Below, piece by piece: positions 10,101-13,100 of a DNA stretch of 64,000 bases. A program made the position numbers. The DNA comes from Escherichia coli (GTDB lineage: Bacteria; Pseudomonadota; Gammaproteobacteria; Enterobacterales; Enterobacteriaceae). The stretch lies in NCBI RefSeq assembly GCF_030013595.1, contig NZ_CP122769.1; one strand, 5' to 3'. Positions within the stretch are counted from its first letter, which is position 1, and each line of letters opens with the position of its first letter.

Positions 10101-13100
10101 TTTCCAGAAGAAGTCAGCGAAATTCAGAAACGGCCATCACAATGGTGCTGCGCTGACGCTGGCGTTCTGCCTTGCGCTGCCTGCGGCGATAGATCTATTT
10201 TGCGCTGACGTAAGGGCAGTCCTCACGGGTATACCAGCAGCAGCCGCAAGGTTCGGGCCGGGGTTTTCCGGCAAGTCCAAATGGTTTCATCAAGTCACCT
10301 TTTTAATATTTTTAATGGCAAGATACTTCCCTAACACATTGTTTTATCGCATATAACGCTGTTGCATAAACAGATACAGATAACCCTCAGGAGAAAACAT
10401 GCAAAGGTTATCAGTGATAACCGCATCCAGATACCGAGTGTCAGTCTGTAAACGTTTTATCACCAGAAAATGTGCTGCCGCAGCCTTAATGCCAGAACTA
10501 CCGTTTACAACATTATGTATACCCGCTTCGAATAACGAACGAGCATGAATTACCTTTTCCCGGGCCGCTTCGATCTCCGCATTAATAACGCATTGCCGCG
10601 CCTGGATGACTGCCTCTCCGGTTAAATCGCGGAAATTCATTAGAGATGTGATCATGATTAACTCTCCAGATTATGTGGAATCATTATAACAACTGGCATC
10701 CCGCCACAAATAACCTGAGAAAAATTCTTTGAAATATTCCTATATATAAGGAATTACAGTCGGAAAAGAAACGATGAAATAGCGCCGACCGCTTAAAATC
10801 GATAAATTAAAATGGACGGCACTGGAATGAAAAACTGAAAGTAGTAAGACCGTAATTATCCTTCACGGATGTAAGCTTTATAAGAGGAGTACTGGCAAAG
10901 CTTTGCCAAGTACTTCGGCGGTTGTGTCTACGATTTTACGGATGTCATCGATCTGCGAAGGCTTATTCAACACCACCGTAAAAAGCTCTCCTTCGTTATC
11001 AGCCTGCTCGCAGTTTCCGTATCGGCTCCCGTCGTACAGCTGCACAATACGTGACATAGAAGACTTTGTTTGTTTCATGGCTTTGCACCTGCTTTTAGGC
11101 AGTTTGGTTACTGGTTATCAGAAGCTGGTTTCATGCGCTTCCGGCTGGGACACGAACTGGTATTTGACGCCGCCAGGCACACCTACTGCTTCGGCAATAG
11201 AGTCGCAAAGCCGCGATAAATCATTTAGTGTCATCGGATATTCAATATCTACAGAATATAAAGCACCTGCATTTTCAGCATCTTCGATGTTTTTATACTG
11301 GGCACTAAATATAGCAATGGTCTGAATTTCGTGGTTATGCATGAACCGGTCCTTATTAAATTATAAAAGCCACCCGAGAGTGGCCTGAGTTGAAACTTAA
11401 ATCTGTGAAGTATTTTTGAGAGATTTTTTGCGATCCAGATGCCGGGCAACAATGGTTCCGATAACAAGTAGCATGATGACCGCACTGAAGAAGGTGCTGT
11501 CAGGGACGCCCTGGAAAAAATCACTGAAACTGTAAACAATAAAAATCAATGCGCAAAAATAGAAAACGATACGAACATAAGGGGTAAAAAACATTTTCAT
11601 CGGTTGCCTTCCATTCAGGGAGAATTCTCAGTAATTACATCACACCTGAAGAGAAACTATTTTCGTATAAATGAGCATTTTCGACATATCAGAGGGGGGG
11701 TTTACTCATAAATGAGGTAGTAAGGGTCACACTTGAGGTGAAAGTTACTTTCCTGGCTGCGAACGAACTATCTCAAATGTTAGAGGTGTGCGTTCGCCTT
11801 GAGAGCCTCATGCCCTGAGGAGCTCAACTTGAGCCGATAGTATAAACCTGGCTCCAGATGGCTTGCTGGCTGGCATAACTCCACGAGGCCGAGCCGGAAC
11901 AGGACCGGAGAGCTCCTGCACGTCACATCATCAGGATTCCCCATAAACGTACGCCGTTCTCTGGCCCGTCTGAAATTGCCAGAGATATCATAGACCGTGC
12001 CGGATGCCATCCGTCGTAACACGTAAATCTGTGCCATTGTAAGCTTCTGGGCGGAACTGCTTAAACCTGACATACCTTCCCCTCCTTATATAAAACAATC
12101 CGCCAGCAGCTCGACTGGCGGACAATGTTTGACTGGCAACAGCAAGGACATACTATTTAGTGACAAGTTTGATCTTGGTTTCACTCATTCGAAGTCGAAA
12201 CTCCTGAAAACCCTGCTCTACCGCTAACTCCAGCCACTCAACGGGAATGGTATAGCTACAATCAGACCCACCCAAAGCGGCATCACAAGCGTAATCCCAG
12301 TCCTCATCCAGTTTTGGATTCATCCCCTGGGCGTAAGCCACAGTATCGCGGGATGCGGGAGAGCCCTCAAGCTCAGCATTAGTGATCAGGTATACACCAT
12401 GACTGTGCGCGAGAAGCACTTTTGGCACCAGATGTGTGCTGGCAATTTTTGAGGATGAGGGAAAGAAAACCCTACCAGCTTTACGCGCCTCTTCTTCAGT
12501 CTGTCCCTCAGCGTTAAGGAGGGCTCCCCCCGGATAGCATGCCGGGTCATAGATCTGATCTGCGGTGACCGAAAACGTTTTTGCGGTGCGAATTTCTTCG
12601 ATCAGTTTATTAATATCCGCCATTTCAAATACGAGAGTGGTCACAGGCTTACTCTCCCTCTTCAGTGGACAACATCAGATACTTTGTTGCCAGCAGAAGC
12701 TCTCCCACATCCTTGAGGGACAATTCAGCTTTGCCTTCTACGGCAAGCTGCAAGCGCTGTCGAATTGCATGAACAGAATCTGAAGATAAAGATGCCATTT
12801 TGCGCAAAACGGCATTAGCCTTTTCTACAGCAGGATACAGAATTTCTGAGTTGGTATTATCTTCGTCATTATCAAAGATAATTTCAGAATCCATATTGAT
12901 GTTATCTTCAAGCCAGCTTGAAAGCACTTCAAGTAATGACATCACCTTTTCAATTTGCATATCGCCTCCTCTGTTAATGTGAAACAAATATAACAAAGTG
13001 GCTTACCCGGCTAATAACCTGAGCAGAAAGTTTTCGCACTTTGTTTGAAAACAACTTTTCTGCTCAGGTTAATGTTAAAGTCGCTGTGTAAAAGATAAAG

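Follow-up and report, generated by a model that had tools for sequence, protein, structure and literature searches.

Does a long inverted repeat set against a plasmid promoter betray the sequence that a regulator of that promoter recognises, or is it a by-product of replication that regulation can do without? The question is raised by a 64,000-nucleotide (nt) stretch of Escherichia coli DNA (contig NZ_CP122769.1; hereafter the window), which is backbone of a conjugative resistance plasmid of incompatibility group HI2 (IncHI2), and in which inverted copies of one sequence at 13015-13071 adjoin the promoter of a DUF957-DUF3085 operon. The initial annotation had read this palindrome as able to form a hairpin or bind a dimer, and as a clue to the half-site recognised, AACCTGAGCAG. 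The explanation that we favour, with moderate confidence and from comparison of sequences, is that the palindrome would be an inverted duplication, confined to the IncHI2 clade, which would have arisen by template switching and be near-neutral. One of its arms is native to the promoter, the other is confined to IncHI2 plasmids, and both drift at the neutral intergenic rate.

Anatomy of the palindrome

Since the flanking genes, which encode a protein of 106 amino acids (106-aa), DUF957 and DUF3085, all lie on the minus strand, the palindrome is to be read on that strand. The 515-bp gap in which it is located is bounded by the 106-aa gene, which runs from 13796 to 13476, and by the DUF957 gene, which runs from 12960 to 12649. 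A 16-bp stem had been described between ACCTGAGCAGAAAGTT at 13017-13032 and AACTTTTCTGCTCAGGT at 13053-13069; both strings are present at these positions, 20 nt apart, and are indeed inverted copies, but they differ by one T, and a stem of that length needs a 1-nt bulge. The perfect inverted repeat measures 15 nt, TAACCTGAGCAGAAA (13015-13029) and TTTCTGCTCAGGTTA (13057-13071), with 27 nt between. In the preferred fold, these 15 bp are followed by a 4-nt bulge (13053-13056), a further 6 bp of GTTTTC/GAAAAC (13030-35/13047-52) and an 11-nt loop (13036-46), the full quasi-palindrome spanning 57 nt with 21 bp paired. The pK29 lineage retains this register and breaks the 16-bp one. The parts of the structure and of the adjoining promoter are as follows.

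12978-12982, minus strand: predicted transcription start (about 12980), placed by its spacing from the -10
12987-12995, minus strand: extended -10, TGTTATATT, with the -10 hexamer at the fixed 27 nt from GG
13009-13021, minus strand: conserved promoter element CAGGTTATTAGCC, quasi-palindrome GGTTA-T-TAGCC, centred near -35, its first 7 nt inside the arm
13015-13035, minus strand: promoter-proximal arm, with outer stem 13015-13029 and inner stem 13030-13035, at about -35 to -55 of the DUF957 promoter
13036-13046, no strand: loop of 11 nt, hypervariable between lineages (13036, 13037, 13038, 13042)
13047-13071, minus strand: distal arm, the derived inverted copy, with inner stem 13047-13052, bulge 13053-13056 and outer stem 13057-13071, at about -67 to -91

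On the minus strand the order reads TAACCTGAGCAGAAA-AGTT-GTTTTC-(loop)-GAAAAC-TTTCTGCTCAGGTTA-TTAGCCGGGTAAGCCACTT-TGTTATATT-...GGAGG-N6-ATG, with an A/T-rich palindrome centre and the centre of dyad symmetry at about -61 relative to the predicted start. The capacity to form a hairpin is borne out by prediction, at -28.1 kcal/mol as RNA (z -4.7) and -18.2 kcal/mol as DNA (z -5.0); a 67-nt core taken alone gives -27.2 kcal/mol as RNA (z -6.8). Perfect inverted repeats of at least 15 nt with a spacer of at most 60 nt number two in the window, the other one lying in the RepHI2 iteron array, and average 0.05 in 100 dinucleotide-preserving shuffles. The palindrome is statistically exceptional and well beyond chance.

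A native arm and its inverted copy

Pattern scanning and inspection of all intergenic regions identified at least eight minus-strand copies of one promoter design, with the first G of GGTTATTAG at 339, 10715, 13019, 20721, 21592, 25364, 25826 and 28246. The palindrome lies, as had been noted, beside the third of these (13019), which five more follow. The design comprises an A/T-rich tract, CAGGTTATTAGCC and then a -10 hexamer, often extended (TGnTATAAT), which starts exactly 27 nt after the first G of GG (28 in one copy); in an alignment of the eight copies, information content is concentrated in CAGGTTATTAG(CC). The family drives a one-directional array of small genes of about 20 kb, and the design is kept at the DUF957 promoter of IncHI1-type and other IncH lineages.

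How much of the arm belongs to this element? The two share CAGGTTA only, the outer 7 nt, and the other 14 nt of the 21-nt arm fall in the variable A/T-rich zone, the remaining promoter copies matching the arm at 7-15 positions. The outer end of the arm, AATAACCTGAG, recurs at the copies at 10715 and 28246, both of which lack a palindrome. The initial annotation was right, then, in seeing here a sequence next to a repeated promoter element that has been copied in inverted orientation, and the promoter-proximal arm is native promoter flank. For the distal arm, no counterpart was found elsewhere and no promoter homology continues beyond GGTTA; the copy lacks the rest of the element, GGTTAATGTTA matching GGTTATTAGCC at 6 of 11 positions. 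None of the other seven promoter copies has an inverted self-copy upstream. As a separate observation, a small A/T-rich inverted repeat, ATTCCT-N7-AGGAAT (10736-10754), lies about 20 nt upstream of the copy at 10715; its sequence is unrelated to the palindrome at the copy at 13019.

Distribution among IncHI plasmids

Searched by blastn against 72,556 plasmid records, the 71-nt region occurs at this one locus and in IncHI2 plasmids only, the 'two places' per record being the two strands of the palindrome. Conversely, orthologous DUF957 promoters keep GGTTATTAG...TTTGTTAT without the distal arm in pHCM1 (IncHI1), in HI1A/HI1B-type plasmids and in loci L012 and L015. The form GGTTATTAGCC...TTTGTTATATTTG is found in pHCM1, two HI1A/HI1B-typed plasmids, a Pseudocitrobacter contig and two more distant lineages, in which DUF957 is 64% and 71% identical. 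Upstream of the element, these non-IncHI2 orthologues carry T-rich sequence and, about 100 nt further up, a canonical terminator. Since no orthologous promoter outside IncHI2 has the distal arm, the palindrome is derived and belongs to the IncHI2 clade. To judge by these orthologues, the promoter does not seem to need it, as element and gene are kept in other IncHI lineages without the distal arm. A scan of a genome collection for the promoter pattern returned three loci, of which one, of HI1B type, was relevant, and a search for DUF957 homologues yielded few intermediate lineages. Locus L014, considered as a variant palindrome, was discarded as an indel-ridden assembly.

Constraint and variation in IncHI2-like lineages

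Ten distinct IncHI2-like haplotypes were obtained from a metagenome scan anchored on the invariant promoter spacer and from a search with the 106-aa protein. Across them, 9 of the 42 paired palindrome positions segregate (21.4%), a proportion to be set beside 88 of 404 in upstream intergenic DNA (21.8%). The 15 unpaired positions include 5 that segregate (33%; 8 minimum events), whereas the figures are 6 of 54 (11%) from promoter to ATG and 17 of 312 (5.4%) in DUF957. The arms drift at the neutral intergenic rate. In one clade (L020/L024/L025/L031) the 15-bp stem has acquired 2-4 mismatches, including two uncompensated ones at 13066 and 13024, and hairpin energy drops from about -27 to -11.3 (L020) and -12.9 kcal/mol (L024); stability is halved there while the adjoining promoter and gene are almost invariant. 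Elsewhere, G.U-type transitions occur in L030 and L022, and the inner stem is weakened in L025 and L026. Overall, 95.7% of cells are paired, with one compensatory pair, which passes from G-C to G.U (L020, L025) and to A-U (L024, L031). Covariation is not significant, the observed value being reached by 141 of 500 shuffles; the count was also made in a seven-sequence version.

The proximal arm is uninformative on constraint, for it sits in a low-divergence block (12619-13036) in which the window and pK29 differ at 2 of 418 positions. For the distal arm, the probability under neutrality that none of its 21 paired positions changes is about 0.2. An argument for conserved structure from the window and pK29 alone was given up, its significance being lost once the low-divergence block and the additional lineages were considered. 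The mosaic site patterns of the lineages suggest recombination, and with such a mosaic the perfect stem may have been ancestral and then decayed, or may have been perfected later.

The same comparison revealed wider contrasts along the segment. DUF957 and its promoter (12619-13036) are near-identical between IncHI2 lineages, whereas the DNA directly upstream (13037-13900) is 5-10% different, with up to 35% segregating sites, and over the segment compared (12100-13900) no gene evolves faster than that of the 106-aa protein. Three alleles occur at each of 13037 and 13038 in the loop and 13055 in the bulge. This hypervariability of loop and bulge could reflect mutational exposure of a hairpin, or simply no constraint.

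Template switching as the favoured origin

Template switching during replication is a known route by which quasi-palindromes are created or perfected, as seen in mutation studies of E. coli and phage. The palindrome resembles its products in that two inverted copies lie side by side across a short spacer, one arm being ancestral and local and the other without an independent homologue, and in one arm-to-arm 'correcting' change. It differs in that the originating event is here one that we infer, no lineage with an IncHI2-type spacer but without the distal arm having been found among those compared. We propose that intramolecular template switching during replication would have duplicated, in inverted orientation, 21 bp that reach 7 bp into the -35-region element of the DUF957-DUF3085 promoter and otherwise lie directly upstream of it. 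The product would at present be near-neutral, probably without a role in sequence-specific recognition and dispensable for the promoter. Any effect may be structural and modest, for example through a hairpin in read-through RNA or a cruciform that transiently sequesters the UP/-35 edge.

Several observations weigh against this explanation. Inverted duplications of 21 bp seldom arise de novo, and this one, with a dyad centred near -61, falls in a regulatory position. No mismatch interrupts the stem in the two dominant lineages, which account for about 1,000 sequenced plasmids, and all three palindrome differences between the window and pK29 are unpaired, falling in loop or bulge. There is also the compensatory change in L020 and L024/L031, together with several wobble-preserving transitions on the gene-sense strand, and the loop and bulge are unusually variable, the 15 columns having 8 minimum events, as would fit a hairpin forming in vivo. 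What keeps functional readings alive is the perfection of the stem in dominant lineages, together with the one compensatory change and the hypervariability of the loop. In our ranking, near-neutral template switching stands first, followed by an RNA hairpin, an operator and a cruciform.

Alternative explanations

That the 57-nt hairpin works in read-through transcripts, as a leaky terminator or insulator, a barrier stabilising 3' ends or an RNase III site that shields the DUF957 promoter from read-through, is an unlikely explanation, albeit the one we place next. Like intrinsic terminators upstream of a following promoter, it is a strong hairpin between co-directional genes, with no stronger one than its -28 kcal/mol in the 515-bp gap, and its stem runs as far as UUAUUAG, a U-rich stretch of the promoter element. 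Canonical terminators stand 100-200 nt upstream of other promoter copies and of the IncHI1 orthologue, and in the IncHI2 spacer none is well rated by the scan. Furthermore, 4-5 substitution events preserve G.U pairing on the sense strand as against two on the other, yet this wobble bias is, like the covariation, not significant, and hairpin stability is not conserved, dropping to -11 to -13 kcal/mol in the clade described above. Terminators have loops of 3-8 nt and G+C-rich stems; here, a 21-bp stem with a 4-nt bulge carries an 11-nt loop, the energy per nucleotide is low and a proper U-tract is missing, the tail being UUAGCCGGG, or UUAUUAGCC with the terminal A-U pairs open (T-score 1.7-2.6, against 3.6-4.6 for controls). 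A consensus scan called neither promoter nor terminator at the palindrome, and a d'Aubenton-Carafa-type score comes to -28 to -41, as against -3.5 to +20 for three canonical terminators of these plasmids. An Rfam search of 8-32 kb at a permissive threshold matched sok alone (8510-8668) and nothing at the palindrome, which, with one compensatory pair and a covariation that shuffles readily equal, does not behave as a conserved structured RNA. Less probable still is an operator, at which a dimeric or tetrameric regulator would bind both arms and control promoter copy 3 specifically. Dyad symmetry does adjoin and overlap the -35 region, the arms are perfect in the two dominant lineages, and plasmid-encoded regulators of backbone genes exist, most genes of IncHI1 plasmids responding to the HtdA-TrhR/TrhY circuit in a transcriptome study of R27 that gives no binding sites (PMC7366339). 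Nevertheless, helix-turn-helix operators do not typically have arms of 15-21 bp with centres separated by 42-46 bp, the other seven promoters share no more of the arm sequence than CAGGTTA, and half-sites are conserved neither in orthologous nor in paralogous promoters; all other IncHI lineages have the same promoter without the palindrome, and in one clade the two arms diverge from each other. Ten neighbouring proteins have no DNA-binding match in Pfam or NCBIfam, although a regulator may be encoded elsewhere on the plasmid, and the predicted alpha/beta model of the 106-aa protein (predicted local distance difference test score 71) has no significant fold match in the PDB and no DNA-binding fold. 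KorA/KorB operators of IncP plasmid RK2 and the ArdK-controlled CUP repeats of IncN plasmid pKM101 are short (12-13 bp), conserved and recurrent at many promoters. Repeated promoter architecture for many backbone genes and dyad symmetry near -35 are what the locus has in common with these regulons; unlike their operators, the palindrome is 57 bp long, stands at one promoter and drifts. Exact AACCTGAGCAG occurs in the window in the two arms and nowhere else, and its 'GAGCAG' part lies in the variable A/T-rich zone. Since the duplicated segment is mostly non-conserved flank, restricted to one clade, drifting neutrally and halved in stability in one clade, we regard both dimer binding and the half-site clue as unsupported. 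As operator-like sites at which global regulators of the plasmid might bind, GGTTA-T-TAGCC and AAAAGTWACTTTT, a 13-bp palindrome, are better candidates; neither CAGGTTATTAGCC, AAAAGTWACTTTT nor the arm sequence appears in any paper of the searchable library.

The readings that rest on DNA structure or on mobility have less to recommend them. Extrusion of a cruciform in the supercoiled plasmid could sequester the UP/-35 edge and render the promoter sensitive to supercoiling or temperature, and the predicted DNA hairpin, the A/T-rich centre, a proximal arm spanning -35 to -55 and a hypervariable loop and bulge, as expected of exposed single strands, are in keeping with this. We judge it improbable, however, as an 11-nt loop and a 4-nt bulge disfavour extrusion and stem integrity is not conserved. 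The latter point also counts against a single-strand DNA signal in conjugation, either an Frpo-like single-strand promoter or a priming site (ssi), which we deem very improbable. The hairpin is stable as single-stranded DNA and, like the Frpo and ssi elements of leading regions, lies upstream of small one-strand backbone genes, whose one-directional array resembles a leading region. The Frpo hairpin rebuilds both -35 and -10 as duplex, next to the origin of transfer (oriT). That of the palindrome (-35 to -91) rebuilds -35 to -55 alone and leaves the -10 (12987-12992) outside and single-stranded; in the approximately 87 kb of reference plasmid read, no Tra1 or relaxase gene is annotated and no oriT feature is listed. 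We take the oriT-bearing Tra1 region to lie elsewhere than the repHI2 and Tra2 regions of the window. The faintest chance of all attaches to a remnant of a mobile element, be it a miniature inverted-repeat transposable element (MITE) or the terminal inverted repeats of an insertion sequence (IS), or to a degenerate copy of AAAAGTWACTTTT. AAT flanks the inverted repeat on both sides, the arm segment CAGAAAAGT matches the left half of AAAAGTWACTTTT, and GCAGAAAAGT is identical to the promoter spacer of L012. Against this, a MITE with an AAT target duplication is ruled out by the occurrence at a single locus in one plasmid clade, IncHI2, and the proximal arm is native promoter sequence common to paralogous promoters. 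A AAAAGTWACTTTT half-site is ruled out likewise, as the arm scores 5.8 bits (rank 53) on the position weight matrix, where the 16 true sites, on either strand, score 15-31 bits, and the critical G at 13055 varies between G, C and A among lineages. The reading as a mobile element or as AAAAGTWACTTTT is thus largely refuted.

Further candidates were set aside. Inspection by eye for LexA, CRP and FNR boxes gave only a TTGTT-N4-AACAA resemblance in the loop, which is broken in the pK29 lineage. A divergent plus-strand promoter arising from the inverted copy would have only GATAAA at -10, no similarity beyond GGTTA and no conserved open reading frame. An IS hot-spot tied to the palindrome was dismissed, no insertion being found at the palindrome itself; the distal arm has IS903B about 70 nt upstream of it, pHSHLJ1-MCR1 has ISApl1 next to a shortened 106-aa gene, and in L010/L011 a truncated DUF957 gene is directly followed by the IS30-family element. 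A phage database search gave no match.

The plasmid setting

With a 2.5-kb query around the palindrome, 1,007 plasmid records were matched, 579 of them at 99% identity or more and 413 at 90-95%; their hosts are E. coli, Salmonella, Enterobacter and relatives, and they type as IncHI2A/MOBH/MPF_F. Beyond about 10 kb the window is colinear with plasmid pD90-1. All annotated genes from about 8.8 to 31 kb are on the minus strand and form a long array of small genes, mostly without assigned function; repHI2, a second rep gene and the beginning of Tra2 are found in the remainder of the window. The genes on either side of the palindrome are the following.

12153-12644, minus strand: DUF3085 gene, second gene of the DUF957-DUF3085 operon
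12649-12960, minus strand: DUF957 gene, first gene under promoter copy 3, with Shine-Dalgarno sequence GGAGG at 12965-12969
13476-13796, minus strand: upstream 106-aa gene, IncHI2-clade-specific and fast-evolving, without a DNA-binding signature

The 106-aa gene co-occurs with the palindrome and is unrelated to the gene at the same position in IncHI1. About 160-190 nt downstream of it, at 13285-13320 on the minus strand, a G+C-rich hairpin (GGGAGC...GCTCCC) is followed by TTTGTAATT, and the window and pK29 have zero differences across 13286-13326; this hairpin may be a terminator or a small RNA element of the IncHI2-specific spacer. In various IncHI2 plasmids, insertions of IS1, IS3, IS5, IS600, IS903B or ISApl1 (IS30-family) are found in or around DUF957, DUF3085 and the upstream spacer (about 12000-14500), which suggests that this segment is dispensable or costly.

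Elsewhere in the window, the sok match on the minus strand (RF01794, 81 bits) marks a hok/sok toxin-antitoxin locus, of which it is the antisense RNA. Tandem repeats of 81 bp form arrays at 39233-40963 and 42343-42895, which overlap or flank repHI2; each repeat includes the inverted repeat TGACAACGGTAGTGA...TCACTACCGTTGTCA, and a second cluster, of 21-bp repeats, is related to them in sequence. These repeats are presumably iterons or incompatibility repeats.

In the window, the palindrome AAAAGTWACTTTT is far commoner than expected: 16 exact cores (AAAGTWACTTT) occur, against an expected 0.13. Their positions are as follows.

2492, 2618, 11741, 13948, 16679, 21728, 25940, 31143: AAAGTWACTTT cores
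36860, 39084, 45869, 45934, 52760, 56544, 60381, 62690: AAAGTWACTTT cores
L012:1455-1465: copy of AAAAGTWACTTTT outside the window

The minus-strand gene array holds six of the 16, which precede start codons by about 125-200 nt, and at least two of the others are inside coding sequences. AAAAGTWACTTTT also occurs in IncHI1-type loci, and in L012 it is situated within the DUF957 promoter spacer, an operator-like position.

Implications

In itself, the palindrome is of minor importance, an unannotated inverted repeat of one clade on which no selective constraint is detectable. We see a small chance that IncHI2 has gained in it a functional cis element, be it a hairpin, a cruciform or an operator for an IncHI2-specific factor. 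It would then provide the highly conserved DUF957-DUF3085 operon with a control of its own, for example by temperature, supercoiling or read-through, and would explain the perfect stem in two epidemic IncHI2 lineages whose loop and bulge vary freely.

The value of the finding is mostly negative, in that the palindrome is unsuited for inferring the recognition sequence of the repeated promoter. More interesting in IncH plasmids, which carry mcr, extended-spectrum beta-lactamase and carbapenemase genes, are the CAGGTTATTAGCC promoter family and the AAAAGTWACTTTT palindrome.

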